This document shows, in pieces, positions 1 to 60,912 of a DNA stretch of 64,000 bases. The position numbers were made by a program, and so were the translations under genes. The number at the start of each line of letters is the position of its first letter. Positions within the stretch are counted from its first letter, which is position 1. The DNA lies in sequence record MT446413.1; one strand, given 5' to 3'. Below the pieces are notes generated by a model that saw nothing but the letters and a program-made list of their open reading frames with translations, was not told the DNA's origin and made no database searches. This DNA is from Escherichia virus TH42.

Positions 1-228
1 TACAGACTTAGAACGCCCCATTTCAGGGTCATAGACTTTGACTCGCTTGGCTGTTGAGCCAGTAACTTGCAACACTTTGAGAAGATAACCTTGATTTCCA
101 ATAGACCATGCAACAACATCACGATTCTTGATATAACGACCAAGCATATCACGATGATAGAACTGCTGCATAACTTTAGCTTTGCTAATCTCTTCAGATG
201 GCGGGGCCACTTTACTCAAATCTAACAT
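1..228 (-). CDS. hypothetical protein, N-terminal part (gene runs past window start)
   Basis: Minus-strand ATG at 226-228 (MLDLSKVAPPSEEISKAK...) with open frame to position 1; absent from ORF track because no stop in window. Confidence 0.3.
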   Translation of the reverse strand, partial: MLDLSKVAPPSEEISKAKVMQQFYHRDMLGRYIKNRDVVAWSIGNQGYLLKVLQVTGSTAKRVKVYDPEMGRSKSV

Positions 229-298
229 AACTCTCTCCTGTTTCATACAATATTCTTATACTGTATATACATTTGAGAGTTATCATATCTACTACCAA

Positions 299-514
299 CT
301 AGTAATAAACCTTGCTGGATATGAATCCAGCACTGTTCTGGATATTTTCAATCCAACGATGAATCTCCACCTTTTCAGCGATTCCTAAAGCTTTTGTAGC
401 TTTTATAGTTTTCTTAGCAAGACGAGCCTCTTGTCTTGTGTTGAATAATTGAATACAATCACCACCAAGAGCTTTGTTAGCCCATTTAGTACGAACTGCC
501 CATAATTTATCCAT
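299..514 (-). CDS. small hypothetical protein, KVYY-tail paralog family
   Basis: 71 aa; shares NTRQEAR-x2-KK core and C-terminal KVYY with 514..726 and 935..1183. Confidence 0.4.
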   Translation of the reverse strand: MDKLWAVRTKWANKALGGDCIQLFNTRQEARLAKKTIKATKALGIAEKVEIHRWIENIQNSAGFISSKVYY

Positions 515-726
515 TAGTAATGTACCTTTCCGCTGATATAGAAACGACCTGATTTAAAGTCTTGAGCTTTGTGGATAGTGATCTTATTAATTGTGCTTTC
601 ACAACTTAACAAGAACTTCTTATGAGCGCGAGCTTCTTGACGGGTATTCCTAATACCCATTGACTCTGTACCACTGCTCCAGTGAATACGAACTACCCAA
701 CGTCTTTTCATTGTTCCAAACTCCAT
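514..726 (-). CDS. small hypothetical protein, KVYY-tail paralog family
   Basis: 70 aa; IRNTRQEARAHKK ... ISGKVHY; tandem paralog. Confidence 0.4.
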   Translation of the reverse strand: MEFGTMKRRWVVRIHWSSGTESMGIRNTRQEARAHKKFLLSCESTINKITIHKAQDFKSGRFYISGKVHY

Positions 727-917
727 TATCTGTCAACCGATTTAGGGACAAACTGCATTACACAGACCTGATTACGAGGGAGATTTATTTCACAAGCGGC
801 TCTTCTCGTCTCAATCTTAACGCTAGAATCTGGACCAACGTTAGATATAAATACTCCCATAGCAAATGCCCCAACTACAAAACCAATAGCTAAGTAAGTA
901 GCTTTTTCTTCTTTCAT
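726..917 (-). CDS. small membrane protein
   Basis: 63 aa; N-terminal hydrophobic helix ATYLAIGFVVGAFAMGVFI. Confidence 0.35.
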   Translation of the reverse strand: MKEEKATYLAIGFVVGAFAMGVFISNVGPDSSVKIETRRAACEINLPRNQVCVMQFVPKSVDR

Positions 918-934
918 CTTGGTTATACACCTTA

Positions 935-1183
935 TTAGTAATATACCTTTTCATTGATAACTAAAGTGTCGTAATTCTCTGTCTGAGAGTGGACCGCTTT
1001 ATGTATAGTGGCAACTACATCAACAGCATCTTTAAAACGTCGGTAGTGGTTTATAGTTACCTGTTTGAGACGTCTAGCCTCCTCTCTTGAGGGAAGCTGA
1101 GTTTTCAGAACAGTGATTTTACCTGTTGAAAGCTTGGTAATCACAACTTTCAGTGCCCAACAATCCAGAGCAGCCTTTTTCAT
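935..1183 (-). CDS. small hypothetical protein, KVYY-tail paralog family
   Basis: 82 aa; PSREEARRLKQ ... INEKVYY. Confidence 0.4.
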   Translation of the reverse strand: MKKAALDCWALKVVITKLSTGKITVLKTQLPSREEARRLKQVTINHYRRFKDAVDVVATIHKAVHSQTENYDTLVINEKVYY

Positions 1184-1192
1184 TTTTAATCC

Positions 1193-1726
1193 TTATACAC
1201 CTTTAGATGCAACTACACCACTACTACCGTTATAACGACCCTTCACTGCATAGGAATCATCACCAGCGTGAGAGTGTTCAAACATAACCATTTGACCAAC
1301 ACGCATCCCAGCACGAACTCGTAAGCTGTGGTTGTGAGTAACATTATGGAACTCAAAGGTCAGCTTACTGTTGTTAAACCCTGCATCAGCCCAACCAGCA
1401 TGGAGGTGGTTCAAGCCACAGCGAGCCATTGAGGAGCGGAGTACAAACAAACTTGAGATATTATCTGGAAGGTTAAACTCTTCCATTGAGTGAGCTAAGA
1501 AGAATTGTCCCGGAGTGATGACAATACCATCTTCAGGGATTTTCACTTCTTTCCACTTGAGATTTTCTTTAGCATCAATGTCAACAATGCCGTCAGCCTG
1601 TTCTTCAACAAGGATAGTATCACCAATACGGATATCCACGCTAGCAGCGTTAACATATTTATGCTCCGCATCTAAAAAGCCATTATCAATAACGTTGTGT
1701 AGTTCTTGAGAACCTAAAAGACTCAT
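1193..1726 (-). CDS. dcd: dCTP deaminase
   Basis: 177 aa; dCTP deaminase/dUTPase-fold motifs (SVDIRIGDT, FVLRSSMARCGLNH, GWADAGF). Confidence 0.8.
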   Translation of the reverse strand: MSLLGSQELHNVIDNGFLDAEHKYVNAASVDIRIGDTILVEEQADGIVDIDAKENLKWKEVKIPEDGIVITPGQFFLAHSMEEFNLPDNISSLFVLRSSMARCGLNHLHAGWADAGFNNSKLTFEFHNVTHNHSLRVRAGMRVGQMVMFEHSHAGDDSYAVKGRYNGSSGVVASKGV

Positions 1727-3159
1727 GAGTTTCTGTTTCCTTGTACAGATGATGCCAAATTGTTAATCATGTTACGAGCTGTTTCACGAGTCAGCGTAAC
1801 ACCTGCTAAGTTACTATCAAGTTCACCAACTAATTCACGAGCTGTTGCTCGGAGTTCTGCACCAAGTGCAGTGTTAGAATGAGCCAGACCATTACGACGA
1901 CCAACAGGTCGAGCGTCGTTAGCTAAAGATGCAAAGCCAGTACGAGCAGCTTCACGAGCCGCTATAGCTGCTACCCGATCTTCTGTAGGGGTTGGCAAAT
2001 CACCAACTTCTACACGTTCTATATCACTAGAACGTAGACCCTGAACAACAGAGCTAACTGTTTCCCATGAACGACGGGAACGCTGCAAATCACCCATAGA
2101 TGGAGAAGAAGCAGGTCGAACAGTTACTCCACCTGTATCATGAGTGACGTGCCATGTACGAGTACCCATTCCAGAAGAACGGGCACTACCAAAACTACCA
2201 GTGAAAGTATCACGAGGTGCCTCTGTAGCAGGTGCTGCGAATCTTGTCTGTTGCCAAGAGTCACGTCTGTCAGTTCCCGGAGTCCAAGGCTGCGTAATTG
2301 CTTCAACACCAATAGTGGTTAATTCACTAGACCAATCTGTCTGTAGGTTAACCTCTTCATCCAGATAGTTACGACCCGCTTCCTGAGGAATATTTAATAC
2401 AGTTTCCATCATCTTCAAGGTGTAGTGGCGACGTTGATTCTGATACAAGTTTACACCAGCCATAGGCCCAACTAAATCACTGATCAGATGAACTTCTGGT
2501 TCACCAAAAGCTCCCATTGCAAGGTGCATATACTCAGTAGAACTGCTGTAAACTGCAACTGTTGCTTCAGGCCACTTTTTGTGGACATACTTCATGTCAC
2601 GACTTGTCACCACAGGGATATCATTAGTATATGCCATTGCAAACATACCTTCGTTCGACACATACATATCATCGAGAGTCATAAACCCTTGACAAATCAT
2701 AGGGAAGCGACCTCTCAGAGTATCCATATCCAGAGGGAGGTTAATCATCATCTGAATCTTCACTTCGTCAATCTCCACTTCCAAAATCTCTTGGAAAGTG
2801 AAAAGTGCTTCAGCGTAATTTGTCCCACTAACAGGCTGAACTAGGCGAGATGTAGTTTGAAGCCCTTTACTCTCTGTCCAAGACAAGAAGTTGTCAAGGA
2901 ACAGTGCAGCATTACCCACGTTAGCAGGGCTGTTTTCCTGACGAGTGTTCCAACGAAATCCTCCTTGAACTAGGAAGATATCAACGTCATTCGGAGTTCG
3001 ATTTTGGAAGAACGTATCACGGATAGCACCACCCGCAATAACAGGATAGATACCATCAGGGACTACGTTATCTCTGATCAAATTACGAATCAGGTCAAGC
3101 CCTACACTGAGGGCTTCTCCTTCTTGAAGGTTTAATTCAGACAATGGAATCTTAATCAT
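1723..3159 (-). CDS. nucleotidyltransferase (CCA-adding / poly(A) polymerase head-domain family) with low-complexity C-terminal tail
   Basis: 478 aa; N-terminal VIAGGAIRDTFF...NDVDIF matches the Pol-beta NTase motif GGAVRD-x-LLG...DxD; last ~150 aa Arg/Ser/Ala-rich low complexity. Confidence 0.5.
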   Translation of the reverse strand: MIKIPLSELNLQEGEALSVGLDLIRNLIRDNVVPDGIYPVIAGGAIRDTFFQNRTPNDVDIFLVQGGFRWNTRQENSPANVGNAALFLDNFLSWTESKGLQTTSRLVQPVSGTNYAEALFTFQEILEVEIDEVKIQMMINLPLDMDTLRGRFPMICQGFMTLDDMYVSNEGMFAMAYTNDIPVVTSRDMKYVHKKWPEATVAVYSSSTEYMHLAMGAFGEPEVHLISDLVGPMAGVNLYQNQRRHYTLKMMETVLNIPQEAGRNYLDEEVNLQTDWSSELTTIGVEAITQPWTPGTDRRDSWQQTRFAAPATEAPRDTFTGSFGSARSSGMGTRTWHVTHDTGGVTVRPASSPSMGDLQRSRRSWETVSSVVQGLRSSDIERVEVGDLPTPTEDRVAAIAAREAARTGFASLANDARPVGRRNGLAHSNTALGAELRATARELVGELDSNLAGVTLTRETARNMINNLASSVQGNRNS

Positions 3160-42996: not shown

Positions 42997-45174
42997 ATGT
43001 CTAGAGAGTTAATGCCCAAGTCTGGGATAATGATGCCTCATGTTGTAGTATCACGAGATGCTGCTGTTGTCGGTGTATCTACTGTTGATGGTGCCGCTGG
43101 CGCTATCGACCTAACTAATAAATATTTACAGAAGACTGCAGCTGAAAACACCTATATGACAAAAACTGAAGGTGCTACTAAGGTTTATGTTTCAGACTCT
43201 ATTGCCCCTATTATGGAAGGTGCTCTGTTTAAATCTGATCCTTTTGTAGCTAATGATGTACCATTCCGTGCTGCTGGGGCTAATGGTGTAGAGTCTGTCG
43301 ATATGATTAAAGTTACACCAGAGAACACTATCAAAATCGGTAGCTACGCTTCTTCTGTTCAGGGTGTAGAAGTTCACACTGCTGGTCGTCTTCAGGTTGT
43401 GGATTTGAATGACGGTGGTGTAGAAACTAAATATCCTGTCTACTCAAAACGGTATCGTCCTGAGATTGATGAACTTCCTTTTGCAGCGATCGGTTCATAT
43501 GTCAAGGATTCTAAAGGACGCACTATTGGTGTAACTCGTACTGGTATCAACTCTGATATAACTCAGATGACTCAGAAAGTAACCTTCACACAACCAGTAA
43601 CTGTTGCAGATGCTGTAGGAGATTATGATGCAGTTACCTACCGTCAACTTAAGAATCAGGGTGGTGGTTCTGGTGGTCCTACCATGAGTGGTATCTCCAA
43701 CTTTGGTATTGGTGATTTCCATCTTCGTGATAGTCGTGCTTTCATTCCTGCATTCGAAGTTGTATCCGATGGTCAGCTACTGAATCGTGCTGATTACCCT
43801 GATCTTTGGGCTTATGCCCAGCTGTTAACTCCTATCACAGATGCTGCTTGGTTGGCTGATGCACAGCAACGAGGTAAATATTCAACTGGTGATGGTTCTA
43901 CTACCTTCCGTGTTCCTGATAGGAATGGTGTTCAGAGTGGCTCTCTGAAAGAACTCTTTGCTCGTGGTGATGGTGGTAATAGTAGTAATAATGGAATGGC
44001 TTATGATGCGGCACTTCCTAACATCGTAGGTTACACTGCCCACACTCTTTTAACTGCTGCGAGTAATCAAGGACAGGTTGCTACCGATGGAGCTTTTACC
44101 TCTACAACCTCAACCTCAGGTGTTTGGCCTTTGTCTGGCGGCGGCGGTCTTTATACCAACATTCAGCTTAACGCTAACAACAGTGATGCTACTTATGGTC
44201 GCTACGGAATCACAGCGAATGCTATCCCTCGTAACTTCATTGGTGTTTGGACTATCCGTGCTCATGGTGGGTTTGTAGCAGCTAATACTTCTTGGGCTGT
44301 TATTAACAGTGATACCTCTCGACCTTCAGCTGGTTCAAAAGCGACTGGTGGTTCTATCTTATCTCAGTATAAAATAGGCTCTGATGTAGAAGCTGAGACT
44401 TACTTGAAAACTGATGCTTATATCAACGGAACTTACTACGGAGTTATTGGTGTTATTAACAAAACCAAAGGAGTGACTTCTGAGCTAACCTTTGGTGATG
44501 ATGGCATCCTAAACTCTAACAAATACAGAGCAAGGCAAGTCTCGGGTTTGAGTTGGAATAATACAGGAGTTGAGAAGGGTACTTATGCAATTGAAGATGT
44601 TAACATAGGAACTAACTATAACTTCAACAGTATAATCAGTGCTGCACAATCTTCTAATTCTGGTTACAGAACTTCTACTCATATCGGTCAAATTCATAAT
44701 GACGGTGGCTCTTTTGCTCAATCCTGCTGGCATGTATCAGGAGATGAAACTAACCAATATGGTGTTCGTCTTGCCATCCAACCTAACTATGAAGATATTT
44801 ATTACTACTTCTGGGCACCAGATGTTTCTCGAACCTACACTCTTCAGAAGAATGCTGTCTCTGATGAACGTCTTAAGCGTGACATTTACGATCTTGATGC
44901 GTCTAGGCCTATTGAAATTTTGAAAGGTTTGACTTTCCGTTCCTTTGTCTATAAGGATGATGAAAAGCAGAGAACTCGTCGTGGTGTTATTGCACAGGAG
45001 GCAGAGAAGGTAGAACCTCTGTATGTTAAGACGATTAACTTCTATGACCCTGATGGTAGCAAGAAAGATCAGAAACAGCTGGATACAACTCCTATGCTTC
45101 TTGATACAATGGCGGTAGTTCAAGACCTCCTAAAACGTGTTGAAGAGTTAGAAGCTAAACTGGCTGCTAAGTAA
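42997..45174 (+). CDS. tail fibre/spike with C-terminal intramolecular chaperone (peptidase S74-type) domain
   Basis: 725 aa; C-terminus SDERLKRDIYDL...GVIAQEAEKVEPLYV...coiled coil; terminator follows. Confidence 0.7.
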   Translation: MSRELMPKSGIMMPHVVVSRDAAVVGVSTVDGAAGAIDLTNKYLQKTAAENTYMTKTEGATKVYVSDSIAPIMEGALFKSDPFVANDVPFRAAGANGVESVDMIKVTPENTIKIGSYASSVQGVEVHTAGRLQVVDLNDGGVETKYPVYSKRYRPEIDELPFAAIGSYVKDSKGRTIGVTRTGINSDITQMTQKVTFTQPVTVADAVGDYDAVTYRQLKNQGGGSGGPTMSGISNFGIGDFHLRDSRAFIPAFEVVSDGQLLNRADYPDLWAYAQLLTPITDAAWLADAQQRGKYSTGDGSTTFRVPDRNGVQSGSLKELFARGDGGNSSNNGMAYDAALPNIVGYTAHTLLTAASNQGQVATDGAFTSTTSTSGVWPLSGGGGLYTNIQLNANNSDATYGRYGITANAIPRNFIGVWTIRAHGGFVAANTSWAVINSDTSRPSAGSKATGGSILSQYKIGSDVEAETYLKTDAYINGTYYGVIGVINKTKGVTSELTFGDDGILNSNKYRARQVSGLSWNNTGVEKGTYAIEDVNIGTNYNFNSIISAAQSSNSGYRTSTHIGQIHNDGGSFAQSCWHVSGDETNQYGVRLAIQPNYEDIYYYFWAPDVSRTYTLQKNAVSDERLKRDIYDLDASRPIEILKGLTFRSFVYKDDEKQRTRRGVIAQEAEKVEPLYVKTINFYDPDGSKKDQKQLDTTPMLLDTMAVVQDLLKRVEELEAKLAAK

Positions 45175-56448: not shown

Positions 56449-56457
56449 TAATGTATA
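56449..56457 (+). promoter_or_regulatory. candidate phage-sigma-dependent promoter motif (TAATGTATA, exact)
   Basis: Exact TAATGTATA 37 nt upstream of the 1472-aa gene start. Confidence 0.4.
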
Positions 56458-56493: not shown

Positions 56494-59400
56494 ATGGCTA
56501 ACTTAAAACCGTGGGAAGAAGCTTCTAAAAGCCCTGCGTATTTGAATGCCTCCCCTGAGCAACAGTCTCAGATGCGAGAACAGTATAAAGCAGCGGGTGG
56601 AACGATTCCTGAGGCTGCTCCAGCTCCTAAACAAGAAGAGCAACCGGGGTTGGTTGGTGATTTTGCCCAAGGTGTGTCCAACGCTATTCAATCAGGTGGT
56701 GCAAACATTGCAGCTAGTGCTGCTAGAGGTATTGGTGGATTAGTTGAGATTGGAGAAAATCTAGCTGGTACACAGACAAGTTATGGTAAGCGTATTCAAG
56801 ACAACTCTAAAAACTTACTAGAAGAACGTCTTTCTCAAATCGAAGATGGTGTAGGTAAATCTGTAGGTCAGTATGCTGGCGTTGCCGCTGATATCGGTCT
56901 TACGGTCGCTAACCCAGCTGTAGCTGCTGCTGTTATTGCAGCTCGTGAAACAGGTAGGGCTTATGCGGACCAAACTCCAGAAGAGGGTGAAGAGAAGTCT
57001 GTTCTTGATGCTGGTCTAGTTGGTGGTGCTAACTTTGCAGCTCAGAAGATTCTTCCGGGGATGACAGGAACTGCTTCTACTACTCTAGGTCGTGTTGGTC
57101 AGAGTGTAGCATCTAACGCAGTGGCTGGTGCTAAAGGTGGTGCTCTTGTAGGTGCTGCTGAAGCACAGAACAAATATGGTGATGACACTACTCTTGCTAA
57201 CATTATTGAAGGTGCTGTAGAAGAAGGTGCGATGGGTGCTGCTTACGGTGGGGCTATCGGTGGGGTTCATGGATTGATAAGTCGTCCTAGTCCTCAAGTC
57301 TTTGACCGTACTCCAGAACACGTTAAGACTGACATTGCCGCTGAAGATGAAGCTATTCGCTCAGCTAAAAATGCAGACGAACTAAGAGAGGCTTACTCTA
57401 AAGCTGATAACGCTAACACAGCTTCCGCTCTTAACCTCCTCGATGAGAACGGTTTCCGTGTTACTGATGCTGTGGCTATGGACTCCCCTGCTGCTCAGCG
57501 TATCCTTAATACTGATCAAAGTCGTGCTGAGAAGGCTGCTACTATTCTGGAAGATCGTTCTAATGTTCCGGGTTTAAATCCTCTTGCTGCTCCTAATAAA
57601 AAGCAAGGTAAAGCTAACGCAGACAACGAACATAACCAGAAACAAGCTGTGGCAATGAAAGATGCAATGGCTGATTATACAAAAGACAACACTAAATCTC
57701 TGTCTGATGTTCTGGATAATCTTGATCGTGAATTAACAGCTGCTCGTGCCAGTGGTGATTTTACTGGTAGTGCTATGGACATTAAGAATCGTACCCAAGC
57801 AGATCGTGATTTCATTGATGCTTATAAAACTTTCTATAACGAAGCTAATCGATTCAAAGCTCGTGATGGTGAAGACTTTAATAACTTCATAGAGAAAGCT
57901 ACAGAGCTTCAGAAACTGGCTGATAATGTATCTCCAGAAATGAAAACTGCTATTGGTGGTTTGAAGAAACTTAAAGGAATGCCTGAAGGTTTCAACCCAA
58001 TCCAAGATGCTTTCACTCTGAATAATACAGCTAAGTTAATGAGTAATCAAGACCGTGGTTGGACTTCTCTGACTGCTGATGGTTTTAAAGAAGCTGCTCC
58101 TCCAGTTCTGATTAAGAATCCTCTTGGTGCTGCTAAGCATGTTCTTAACCGTTTCCGTTCTGACCGTGCTCGCTCTCAACGCGAAAGCCAGCAGGCTGCT
58201 AACAGTGAAGCTATTCGTTCTCTTGCTCGTAGTGATATGGAAGTAACTCGTGCTCGTGCTCAGGCTGATGAAGCCCGTGCTGCGATGGAGAAAGAACCTG
58301 AAGTTGATGACATTAAATTTAAGACTCAAAATGACACGGAAATCGAACCGGTTCGGGAGCCTTCTGCTACTACTGTGACGGAAGAAATTTCCTCTCCAGA
58401 AACCTCTCCTTTAACTGCTCGTGATTTGGTCGCACAGAGACGTGCTTTGAAGGAAGCTGAAGCTAGACGTCAAGAAGCCGAAGCTAATAAGGTTCAGGAA
58501 GAACCAACTCCAGAGCCAGTTCCACAAGAACCAGTTACTACCGCAAGGGATTTAGTTGCCCAGCGTCGTGCTGTTGCAGAAGCTCGTAAACGTCAAGAAG
58601 CAGAAGAGGCTAGCAAGGCTGCTGAGAGCGTTCCTGAGGAGCCTACCGTTCAAGCCGAGCCATTACCTACCCGTGCTCCTAAAGCTCCTGAGATTGAGCC
58701 TGAGCCTGTTAAACCAGCTACTGGAATAGAACGTCTAGCTGCTATGTCAAGTGCTGCCCGTCAAGCTACTAAAGATCGTGCAGATCGCTTTGCTCGTTCC
58801 CTGTATACGGCAGGTGCTAAGGCTAAAGCCACAGCGGAGAATTTCCTTTCTTATAAAGGTGACCCGAAAGAGTTGATGCGTCGTATCCGTCAGGAAGACC
58901 AAGCTAACAACGCTGAACGTCATGCTGAGATGGCTCGTAACCAGCTTGCTTCTCAACAGGGTATTGCTGCTGCTAAGTCACAACGTGTTCGTTCTTCGTT
59001 TGCTGATTGGGTTAAGGAACGTGGTCTACCTTCTGATATTGCTACCAAGGCATTACGTGCTGAGGAGAAAGGTATTGGTGGGAACGTGACTAGTCTGGAT
59101 TCACTGAAGCGTAGGTCTGAACGTCTGTATCAGAAACAGCGCGATGATGAATTTAACAAGATGTATGAAGAAGCTCTTGCAGAGAATAAGAAGCTTGATA
59201 AAGCTGATGCTCCTAAACTGGTTGACCAGAAGAAAGAGTTACACAGCGAAATCAATTTACTTCTTGATGCAGAGCCATTACGTCCAGCTCAAAAAGATGC
59301 TATGCGTAAGTTGATGGAAGACTTTGTAGATGGGAAGTTTAAAGCTTCAGAGAAGGCTGGAAGGGAAGATGCTTTGGAAGTGGGACAGATGAAGGATATA

Positions 59401-60912
59401 TGGGATGGATTCATTAACACATATAACCGTGAAGTTAACATGTTCAACAAAGCTAATAAGAACTCTCAGTACGAAGCAGCAGCTAAACATTTGCAAGCAC
59501 GTCAAGAACGTCTTGAGACGCTCCGTAACAGAGCTAAAGCTCGTAGTGATGCCAAGGCAGCAATAGAGACAGAAAGACAGTCTCTCGAGGCTATAGCGGC
59601 TCAGAAATCGGAGATGGAGAACCTGTTGAAAGATTTACCAGAGTCGGTACGTGAGTCTCAGGAAGGTCGTACACTGAAACAGTTAGCAGCTCACCACGAT
59701 AAGAACTCTCCTGTACCACCGGAGCGTTTCCGTAGTATTATCGAACGTATCCACAACGCAGAAAGTGATTACATTGACCGTAAGCGTCGTCTCACTGAAG
59801 CGGAAGAAGATGCTCGAGAAGCTAAGTGGAATAAGATGTATGAACAGGCGGAAGAGATGAACCGTAAATACGACATTGATTCCCGTGTACAACGTGACAA
59901 GAAGCTCAAAGAAGCTCAGGAAGCAGAGAACGATCGCATGGCAATACAACGCCAACGTGATGACATTCATAAGCGCCTGATGCGTTCTATGGAGGATAAA
60001 GGGATTCCTAAAGAAGATGCAGAAATCTTTGCAGGTTCTTATATGGATAACCGTTACTCTCTTCTGGAGAAACCTATGACTCCTACTGAGCACCAGAATG
60101 CTCGTTCTCGTATTGAATCGGATATTTCAAAGTTTGCTAAGGATTTTGAGAAGATGACACCAATCGAGAAAGATATTGCTAAGGCAACTGGTGATATGGA
60201 TGGGAAGGTAGAGGTGGATGCAGACACTTCGAAAGCTATCGAAGATGCGAAGAAGGTAGATTCTGAGTTGAAGAAACTTCAGGATGAGGAGTTGGAAATG
60301 GAGAAAGTTCGTTCGGCATTGCCAGAAGATGAAAGATCTCAAGCCTCCTCTGATATACTGGAAAGCATTAAGAAGCAGGAAGATGACTTTGCTAACAAAG
60401 CAGAGAAAGCTTTTATCGAAGGTAAAGACTTGCAGGAACTGGCTAGTGTAGCAGAGGTTCTAGATAGAGTTCATGGTGCTGACAAGGCTGGTAACAACCG
60501 TCGCTTTGTACGTGCATTACAAACTGCTGCGGAGAACAAGAAACAGTATGGGGATAATCCAGTGGCTTGGTTTAGTGCTGATGACTATTCTGCTATTGCT
60601 AAACTTGGGGCTGCTTCAGCGGGTGGTAACAAATCTAGAGCACTGGAGAAAATCTTTGGTTCTACTGCTGAACAAGCTAAAGGGAAACTTTTAGGGCGGG
60701 ATGATGTAGCGAAGATTAGACGTGTGATTGAAGAGAATCCTGATGTTAAGATCCCTTCTTACAAGACAACTACTCGACAAGAGTATTTACAGTTCTTGGA
60801 GAAGTATAATGACGAGGGAGAGTTGAAAGTCAAACGTGGTTCTCTGTCTGACAAGTTGGAGAGAAGTAAGCGTCAAGCTAAACTCCGTGTTAGAGTTCGA
60901 GCTAAGGAGTAA
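56494..60912 (+). CDS. very large virion protein (internal core/ejection protein or tape-measure-like)
   Basis: 1472 aa, Ala/Glu/Lys/Arg-rich with long helical repeats; TAATGTATA motif upstream; bidirectional terminator downstream. Confidence 0.55.
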   Translation: MANLKPWEEASKSPAYLNASPEQQSQMREQYKAAGGTIPEAAPAPKQEEQPGLVGDFAQGVSNAIQSGGANIAASAARGIGGLVEIGENLAGTQTSYGKRIQDNSKNLLEERLSQIEDGVGKSVGQYAGVAADIGLTVANPAVAAAVIAARETGRAYADQTPEEGEEKSVLDAGLVGGANFAAQKILPGMTGTASTTLGRVGQSVASNAVAGAKGGALVGAAEAQNKYGDDTTLANIIEGAVEEGAMGAAYGGAIGGVHGLISRPSPQVFDRTPEHVKTDIAAEDEAIRSAKNADELREAYSKADNANTASALNLLDENGFRVTDAVAMDSPAAQRILNTDQSRAEKAATILEDRSNVPGLNPLAAPNKKQGKANADNEHNQKQAVAMKDAMADYTKDNTKSLSDVLDNLDRELTAARASGDFTGSAMDIKNRTQADRDFIDAYKTFYNEANRFKARDGEDFNNFIEKATELQKLADNVSPEMKTAIGGLKKLKGMPEGFNPIQDAFTLNNTAKLMSNQDRGWTSLTADGFKEAAPPVLIKNPLGAAKHVLNRFRSDRARSQRESQQAANSEAIRSLARSDMEVTRARAQADEARAAMEKEPEVDDIKFKTQNDTEIEPVREPSATTVTEEISSPETSPLTARDLVAQRRALKEAEARRQEAEANKVQEEPTPEPVPQEPVTTARDLVAQRRAVAEARKRQEAEEASKAAESVPEEPTVQAEPLPTRAPKAPEIEPEPVKPATGIERLAAMSSAARQATKDRADRFARSLYTAGAKAKATAENFLSYKGDPKELMRRIRQEDQANNAERHAEMARNQLASQQGIAAAKSQRVRSSFADWVKERGLPSDIATKALRAEEKGIGGNVTSLDSLKRRSERLYQKQRDDEFNKMYEEALAENKKLDKADAPKLVDQKKELHSEINLLLDAEPLRPAQKDAMRKLMEDFVDGKFKASEKAGREDALEVGQMKDIWDGFINTYNREVNMFNKANKNSQYEAAAKHLQARQERLETLRNRAKARSDAKAAIETERQSLEAIAAQKSEMENLLKDLPESVRESQEGRTLKQLAAHHDKNSPVPPERFRSIIERIHNAESDYIDRKRRLTEAEEDAREAKWNKMYEQAEEMNRKYDIDSRVQRDKKLKEAQEAENDRMAIQRQRDDIHKRLMRSMEDKGIPKEDAEIFAGSYMDNRYSLLEKPMTPTEHQNARSRIESDISKFAKDFEKMTPIEKDIAKATGDMDGKVEVDADTSKAIEDAKKVDSELKKLQDEELEMEKVRSALPEDERSQASSDILESIKKQEDDFANKAEKAFIEGKDLQELASVAEVLDRVHGADKAGNNRRFVRALQTAAENKKQYGDNPVAWFSADDYSAIAKLGAASAGGNKSRALEKIFGSTAEQAKGKLLGRDDVAKIRRVIEENPDVKIPSYKTTTRQEYLQFLEKYNDEGELKVKRGSLSDKLERSKRQAKLRVRVRAKE

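Follow-up and report, generated by a model that had tools for sequence, protein, structure and literature searches.

Near the left edge of the 64,000-nucleotide stretch of Escherichia virus TH42 DNA analysed here (MT446413.1; hereafter, the window), three small minus-strand genes, termed A (open reading frame (ORF) 299–514), B (ORF 514–726) and C (ORF 935–1183), are identified by profile and alignment evidence as homologous members of one lineage-restricted protein family, phrog_4939, represented in phage phiEco32 by gp69, gp70 and gp71. A and B were already catalogued as hypothetical proteins (ECBP2_0067 and ECBP2_0068; phrog_4939) and C is a new, rare subtype. What is added here is the recognition of the family as a multi-subtype array of paralogs, with one to four copies in a single genomic slot and, in some phages, an additional one outside it; a rare fifth subtype, C, which moves between divergent phages as a gene-sized cassette; and a common fold, confidently predicted, that would carry a conserved basic ridge. 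On present evidence, this is an ordinary uncharacterised, lineage-restricted phage gene family with one mobile member, a modest finding that holds no surprise. The proteins may be small nucleic-acid-binding accessory factors of the phage’s own early or replication programme, a reading that we favour tentatively and hold at somewhat less than an even chance.

The window derives from a phage of the Gordonclarkvirinae, a group of Escherichia phages that are phiEco32-like podoviruses with elongated heads; over its first 6 kb, its closest relatives are TH34 (99.7% identity) and then ECBP2 (94.5%; genus Suseptimavirus). The Gordonclarkvirinae are abundant, restriction-resistant and of broad host range but poorly studied (PMC11990801). 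Stretches of relatives compared with the window are designated by L numbers where needed, L003 and L016 being metagenomic contigs.

Homology and Coding Status of A, B and C

The three genes and the ORF lying among them are the following:
Positions 299–514, minus strand: A, 71 amino acids (aa), isoelectric point (pI) 9.9; matches phrog_4939 at E 1.6e-22; orthologue of phiEco32 gp69.
Positions 514–726, minus strand: B, 70 aa when read from the ATG at 726; matches phrog_4939 at E 3.5e-26; orthologue of phiEco32 gp70.
Positions 726–917, minus strand: an unrelated 63-aa ORF with one hydrophobic helix (membrane protein); matches phrog_7508 at E 1.6e-27.
Positions 935–1183, minus strand: C, 82 aa, pI 9.8; matches phrog_4939 at E 9.5e-5; a divergent, rare subtype.

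An original prediction made from the letters alone had placed three paralogous ORFs at exactly these positions, where they are indeed found, and the paralogy is borne out, although not by the same route for each gene. A and B align over their full length in BLASTP (32% identity, E 2e-10), whereas pairwise BLASTP of A with C and of B with C returned nothing significant. Judged by the demand for a significant formal alignment that was set at the outset, C, about 25% identical to A and B in the multiple alignment, would have failed on pairwise comparison alone, and it enters the family by profile. The phrog_4939 profile (67 positions) is matched end to end by all three proteins, and it was the only PHROG match when 43 diverse family members were scanned. 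A family hidden Markov model (HMM) built from 92 members, from which every C-type sequence and three aberrant ones had been excluded, assigns C 23.8 bits (E 2e-9 for a single target), compared with a maximum of 13.4 bits for 2000 shuffles of C. Across the whole 64-kb window, the family HMM matched A, B and C only, and the 63-aa ORF at 726–917 gave no match to it.

The shared signature consists of a W...(T/S)R-x-E-A-R-x-x-K core and a C-terminal K-V-[YH]-Y; in multiple alignments, the helix motif reads (T/S)R-x-x-A-R-x-x-K and the tryptophan of the first strand is invariant. The core had first been described as N-(T)-RQEAR-x2-KK; a related core is present in all three proteins, but the version in C, PSREEARRLKQ, lacks the N-T and the second lysine, with Ser replacing Thr and Gln replacing that lysine, while W, both R, K and the KVYY end are kept. 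The proposed KVYY/KVHY termini are confirmed by the alignments.

A ribosome-binding site precedes each of the three ORFs, that of C (AAGGA) being its own. The ratios of nonsynonymous to synonymous substitution rates (dN/dS) against orthologues are below 1 for A (0.30–0.46), B (0.035–0.18) and C (0.095), which shows that all three are real, functional genes under purifying selection. The blank BLASTP results between C and the other two would suit a chance resemblance, or ORFs that are not real genes; the profile match of C at E 9.5e-5, the margin of its HMM score over every shuffle, the predicted fold shared by A and C at high confidence, dN/dS values running from 0.095 (C) to 0.46 (A) and the ribosome-binding sites make this extremely improbable, and, by these measures, chance similarity is excluded.

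At the level of the individual genes, A is 100% identical to ECBP2_0067 and to the TH34 copy, and its ATG shares one base with the stop codon of B at 514 (TAATG); the same overlap recurs at 726. Such overlapping stop and start codons of adjacent copies are consistent with translational coupling. B (pI 10.5–10.75) probably starts at the ATG at 711, which would yield a protein of 65 aa (MKRRW...); a GGAG precedes that ATG, and many homologues have been called from MK(R/K)xW. The slot of the 63-aa ORF is occupied in phiEco32 by the family member gp71, and KBNP1711 has both.

Predicted Fold and Conserved Residues

AlphaFold2, run with family alignments, modelled A with a predicted local distance difference test score (pLDDT) of 84 and a predicted template modelling score (pTM) of 0.69, and C with a pLDDT of 91.9 and a pTM of 0.76. 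The two models run through the same order of elements, namely strand, strand, a helix of about 15 residues, a long strand and a short strand; the fold predicted for both is thus strand-strand-helix-strand-strand. Of the checks proposed at the outset, profile search matched all three proteins to phrog_4939 and structure prediction gave one fold for the two that were modelled.

An AP2/integrase-arm DNA-binding domain, the first lead on account of a W...F-x-T-x-EA pattern, was rejected as the models lack the strand-strand-strand-helix order that it requires; the ubiquitin-like β-grasp and the AbrB/MazE swapped-hairpin folds have the same strand-strand-helix-strand-strand order and were rejected on structural superposition. 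Pfam, NCBIfam and PADLOC scans of A, B, C and the membrane-protein ORF gave nothing above threshold, with CMAS and ScmF appearing at chance level only; Pfam scans of the 43 diverse members taken singly revealed no recurrent family, and a profile search of Protein Data Bank (PDB) sequences returned only a spurious SEC3 match.

The family is uniformly and strongly basic: all 97 members collected have a pI of 9.5–11.1 (median 10.1) and a net charge of about +6 to +10. Conservation was weighed over the 43 diverse members, sequence-weighted and under 35% in mean identity; in the numbering of A, W5, R27, R31 and K34 are each conserved at 100% and the terminal tyrosine at 88%, with further basic positions at K/R35 (93%), K/R53 (96%), K/R8 (88%) and K68 (60%). 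Seven conserved basic positions thus run across the family. On the helix, positions 27, 31, 34 and 35, together with the next turn, would form a continuous positive stripe along one face, beside which a hydrophobic stripe (30, 33 and 37) would have to pack on the sheet; a helix-capping box may be formed by T26 and E29.

When the A model was searched against BFVD with Foldseek, family members came first, followed by uncharacterised proteins of 73–80 aa from SE131, vB_CsaP_009, GAP52 and LAh_8. The GAP52 protein, GAP52_050, and its orthologues in A24 and ECO319P1 (Grimontviridae, uncharacterised) are 80 aa long with a pI of 10.1, and GAP52_050 carries a W...TR-x-x-AR-x-x-LK motif (W...TRKAAR..LK), its gene lying directly after the DNA polymerase gene:
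L023:38271–38513 (GAP52_050), L025:1501–1743 and L026:1501–1743: GAP52_050, the Foldseek match of the A model, and its orthologues.

The structural match of GAP52_050 to the A model (E 8.7e-3, TM 0.67, 25% identity) is accompanied by a weak profile-profile signal (hhalign P 0.0018, probability 14.6%) confined to the N-terminal half. GAP52_050 differs from the family in lacking the KV[YH]Y C-terminus and in lying at another locus; it is possibly a distant branch. In SE131, GAP52 and LAh_8, the 2.5 kb flanking the gp68 homologues on each side contained no family member at the sequence level, and a whole-genome scan of GAP52 produced only GAP52_050, as a weak candidate.

Distribution and Genomic Organization

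An exhaustive HMMER profile search of 1.84 billion cluster representatives (E at most 1e-3) retrieved just 26 clusters, all of stand-alone proteins of 64–82 aa; none of the copies lay outside the phiEco32-like phage group. Five subtypes can be told apart, the gp71, gp70, gp69, thioredoxin-ThyX and C types. By tblastn against 50,697 GenBank phage records, the gp70 type (B) occurs in 98, that is, in every Gordonclarkvirinae relative, the gp71 type in 65, the gp69 type (A) in 43 and the thioredoxin-ThyX type in 42; the C type had 0 matches in these records.

The contexts examined in 12 phage or metagenome loci, members on contigs too short to assess not being counted, show an array of one to four copies that always has the dCTP deaminase gene on one side and the gp68-like and Dps-like genes on the other, with the order of subtypes constant across genera. 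Its two flanks in the window are:
Positions 1193–1726, minus strand: dCTP deaminase gene (Pfam DCD E 9.7e-35; phrog_1663 E 1.1e-58), which adjoins the array on its upstream side in all relatives.
Positions 1–228, minus strand: 5′ part of the gp68-like gene, recognised from its sequence and from the annotation of ECBP2, Bas88 and phiEco32; 87% nucleotide identity to L003.

In phiEco32, three consecutive members, gp71-gp70-gp69, are joined by shared gene boundaries, and KBNP1711, EP335, Bas89 and NJ01 likewise have three array members. The LAMP locus has the gp70 type alone; the arrays of ECBP2, Bas88 and SU7 consist of the membrane-protein gene with the gp70 and gp69 types; and the metagenomic contigs L003 and L016 hold four members each, C among them in L003. 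Five distant clusters were looked up, of which three fall in the slot between dCTP deaminase and gp68, one lies between thioredoxin and ThyX, and one is on contigs too short to tell. The genes of the window resemble phiEco32 gp69–71 and their orthologues in profile, length, signature (W ... TR-x-EAR-x-x-K ... KV[YH]Y-COOH) and position after the dCTP deaminase gene, the last of these as originally described; the window differs in lacking the gp71 type and carrying C instead.

An extra copy lies between the thioredoxin and ThyX genes, about 2 kb from the array, in ECBP2, Bas88, TH34 and L018, and the source genome of the window very probably has such a fourth copy about 1.9 kb past the window’s left edge, to judge from these relatives:
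L022:2450–2674 (TH34 43749–43973), L002:1222–1446 (ECBP2_0060) and L018:710–925: thioredoxin-ThyX subtype, 71 aa, MEKKPW..FWVVKW...TR(K/R)EARRFKR...KKIHY.

C as a Horizontally Acquired Cassette

The three genes had been described as tandem, which is not strictly so and is misleading for C: the unrelated membrane-protein gene at 726–917 separates B from C, and C is an acquired cassette and not a local duplicate. The insertion leaves a clear footprint:
Positions 923–1203 (strand not applicable): insertion footprint; 270 bp (934–1203) are absent from ECBP2 and Bas88, as seen by alignment, and from TH34 and TH43, as seen by split matches.

An 11-bp direct repeat, TTATACACCTT, flanks the insertion (923–933 and 1193–1203) and corresponds to the 3′ end of the dCTP deaminase gene. 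In TH34, A, B and the membrane-protein gene are 100% identical to those of the window and C is absent. Only two close relatives of C were found among 5.8 billion proteins, both metagenomic clusters, with 95% and 88% identity. In L003, C lies between a Y13I-like gene (itself preceded by an HNH endonuclease gene) on one side and the membrane-protein gene on the other; its nucleotide identity to the window copy is 93.6%, while the surrounding genes are far more divergent (exonuclease 74.5%, membrane protein 73%, B 64%, dCTP deaminase 60%, A 59%), and C thus moved horizontally as a unit. It is a gene-sized cassette, made up of a ribosome-binding site and an ORF, that moves between divergent phages and that was gained here recently by recombination at the 11-bp microhomology. 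A local tandem duplication as the origin of C is ruled out by its absence from TH34, its identity of only about 25% to A and B and its 93.6% nucleotide identity to L003.

The slot that received C also takes HNH and Y13I-like insertions, in agreement with the published remark that the locus is syntenic except for homing-endonuclease insertions (PMC11990801). The junction between the dCTP deaminase gene and the array is an insertion hot spot (L003:4294–5004, L010:194–703 and L011:489–695), the contents of which vary from one relative to another and include an HNH homing endonuclease, a T4 Y13I-like gene (PF26888), the membrane-protein gene (phrog_7508) and the C cassette.

Possible Function of the Family

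The function of the three genes was called unknown in the original prediction and is so in every database searched: phrog_4939 is labelled “unknown function”, has no Pfam or NCBIfam model, and none of its members has been assigned a function there. In the tentatively favoured role of small nucleic-acid-binding accessory factors, the conserved positive ridge would bind a polyanion, most likely DNA or RNA; the copies would be made in fixed ratios through translational coupling; and the paralogs would be specialised variants of one biochemical activity and not binders of unrelated targets. One common ligand is suggested because charged, surface-type residues are invariant across subtypes that share less than 30% identity, and the strong positive charge of all members suggests that this ligand is a polyanion. 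The genes lie in a unit with primase/helicase, exonuclease, nucleotidyltransferase and dCTP deaminase, just before a promoter dependent on the phage sigma factor gp36. These replication and nucleotide-metabolism neighbours, together with the universality and constraint of the B type and the restriction of the family to one phage group, would favour the accessory role; likewise, the presence of B in all 98 relatives, its low dN/dS and the group restriction fit a part in the phage’s own processes better than a promiscuous anti-defence gene. The possible distant relative GAP52_050, of unproven homology, is encoded directly after a DNA polymerase gene and has been counted as support. By functional analogy alone, the family recalls HU, Sso7d/Cren7 and Alba, proteins of 7–10 kDa that are strongly basic and rich in β-sheet, phage versions of which are encoded with replication genes.

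Several points weigh against a nucleic-acid ligand. No nucleic-acid-binding family or fold was matched in the Pfam, NCBIfam and PADLOC scans (all sub-threshold) or in the PDB sequence search (chance level). The exposure of the basic stripe was deduced from helical periodicity alone, and an acidic protein would suit a basic surface just as well. In its variable copy number (one in LAMP, four in L003 and L016) and in having a mobile member, C, the family is reminiscent of accessory or counter-defence genes. The literature searched, which left out two primary phiEco32 papers, yielded no paper on gp69–71 or their paralogy and no experiment on these proteins.

Many small phage early proteins work by plugging sites on host enzymes. 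It is conceivable, if rather doubtful, that family members are protein-binding inhibitors of host factors involved in takeover or counter-defence, each paralog blocking its own host enzyme at a site that is acidic or binds nucleic acid. The members are small single-domain proteins of the early class (PMC4281155), with five subtypes in variable copy number; C travels as a cassette between divergent phages, and the slot, a hot spot, has also accepted HNH endonuclease and Y13I-like genes; moreover, the Gordonclarkvirinae resist nearly all defence systems tested, and no inhibitor responsible for this is known (PMC11990801). Against such inhibitors stands the conservation of R27, R31, K34 and K/R53 in all subtypes, which points to one shared ligand and not to diversified targets; the B type occurs in every relative under strong constraint, and the family, unlike typical anti-defence genes, is restricted to one phage group, with no PADLOC-related or known anti-defence matches. 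The small α+β binders T4 Dmd (PDB 5hy3_B), AcrIIC3 and AcrIC8 have no sequence similarity to the family, and the structural scores against them are no better than those for dozens of unrelated ferredoxin-like domains.

It seems unlikely that the family instead provides subunits of homo- or hetero-oligomers that serve as structural or regulatory accessories of nucleotide-metabolism or replication enzymes, with nucleic acid not being the primary ligand; the partners scaffolded or regulated might be, for example, dCTP deaminase, ThyX, thioredoxin or the replisome. The stop/start overlaps (TAATG at 514 and 726; the phiEco32 gp71/gp70/gp69 boundaries) would suggest coupled, stoichiometric synthesis, and the fixed order of subtypes across genera, the placement beside dCTP deaminase and the extra copy between thioredoxin and ThyX point the same way; in the models, a sandwich with a single helix would keep one side of the sheet open to oligomerisation. 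The LAMP locus examined has a single B-type copy, which means that no fixed hetero-oligomer can be essential, and co-variation or interaction support for any oligomer is lacking.

A narrower form of nucleic-acid binding, in which the proteins coat unmodified phage DNA and shield it from host nucleases, with the subtypes (C included) tuning the protection, appears very improbable. If true, it would explain the restriction-modification resistance of the Gordonclarkvirinae, which was reported with neither a DNA modification nor a restriction inhibitor known to cause it (PMC11990801). Lying at the distal end of the early unit, however, the genes would be expressed only once restriction had already had access to the incoming DNA.

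A uracil-DNA glycosylase inhibitor or other DNA mimic beside dCTP deaminase was rejected as an identity for these proteins: known examples are acidic, and the family pI is 9.5–11.1. The dCTP deaminase is explained by dTTP supply, since the phage also encodes ThyX.

The B type would make a reasonable target in the BASEL isolates that infect K-12, being universal, constrained, basic and placed beside replication and nucleotide-metabolism genes in poorly studied phages.

Locus Context and Putative Transcription Signals

On the minus strand, the gene order runs from primase/helicase through the DNA polymerase exonuclease subunit, a 478-aa nucleotidyltransferase and dCTP deaminase to the ORFs of the array. 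The gp68-like gene, which begins at 228 and is cut off by the left edge of the window (109 aa in relatives), shows that the leftward gene string extends past A; in relatives, it is followed by the Dps-like gene, thioredoxin and ThyX. The nucleotidyltransferase (1723–3159, minus strand) matches phrog_12715 at E 2.7e-155 with no Pfam match, and its C-terminal half is of low complexity and rich in Ser, Thr, Arg and Ala. According to a published speculation, the nucleotidyltransferase and dCTP deaminase might together produce an unknown DNA modification and so account for the resistance to restriction (PMC11990801).

Two elements lie just downstream of, or across, the end of A:
Positions 266–274, minus strand: gp36 promoter element AAATGTATA, found by motif search and invariant in 7 aligned phages, including distant metagenomic ones.
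Positions 287–310, minus strand: stem-loop of about 10 bp that spans the stop codon of A, seen in RNA folds of four phages.

AAATGTATA matches the single-element consensus of gp36, tAATGTAtA (PMC8948821; PMC4281155), and is located 38 nt upstream of the gp68-like ATG; a gp36-dependent promoter has been mapped experimentally upstream of phiEco32 gene 68 (PMC8948821). By position and match, the element appears to be the counterpart of that mapped promoter and to mark the end of the transcription unit that holds A, B and C. In the SU10 paper, CDS 69–125 were assigned by homology to phiEco32 to the early class and CDS 25–68 to the middle class (PMC4281155), which, taken together with the element after A, would make the family genes the last in their unit before the first middle promoter. 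The description of A, B and C as the last genes of the leftward operon is therefore right with respect to the gp36 promoter and wrong with respect to the gene string, which the gp68-like gene continues leftward.

The stem-loop at 287–310 pairs the last codons of A (..V-Y-Y-stop) with the conserved downstream sequence GGTAGTAGAT and has no U-run; the sequence of its downstream arm, TGGTAGTAG, does not vary among 7 phages. The structure might serve as a processing site, stabilise the 3′ end or belong to the promoter context. A stem-loop occupies the equivalent place in L005, L006, L007, L009, L014 and L017, about 20 nt upstream of the gp36 element. Within the last codons of A, an 8-bp GC-containing hairpin at 313–332 (minus strand), TGCTGGAT-TCAT-ATCCAGCA, had been flagged as terminator-like but is followed by only a weak T-run; as the folds of three other phages differ there, it was set aside as probably lineage-specific.

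A loosened form of the promoter motif has 2 matches in 64 kb against a chance mean of 1.5, which is no excess. The sole exact TAATGTATA in the window, at 56449–56457 on the plus strand, lies 37 nt upstream of a 1472-aa ORF (56494–60912) and, by its position, is probably a gp36-dependent late promoter.

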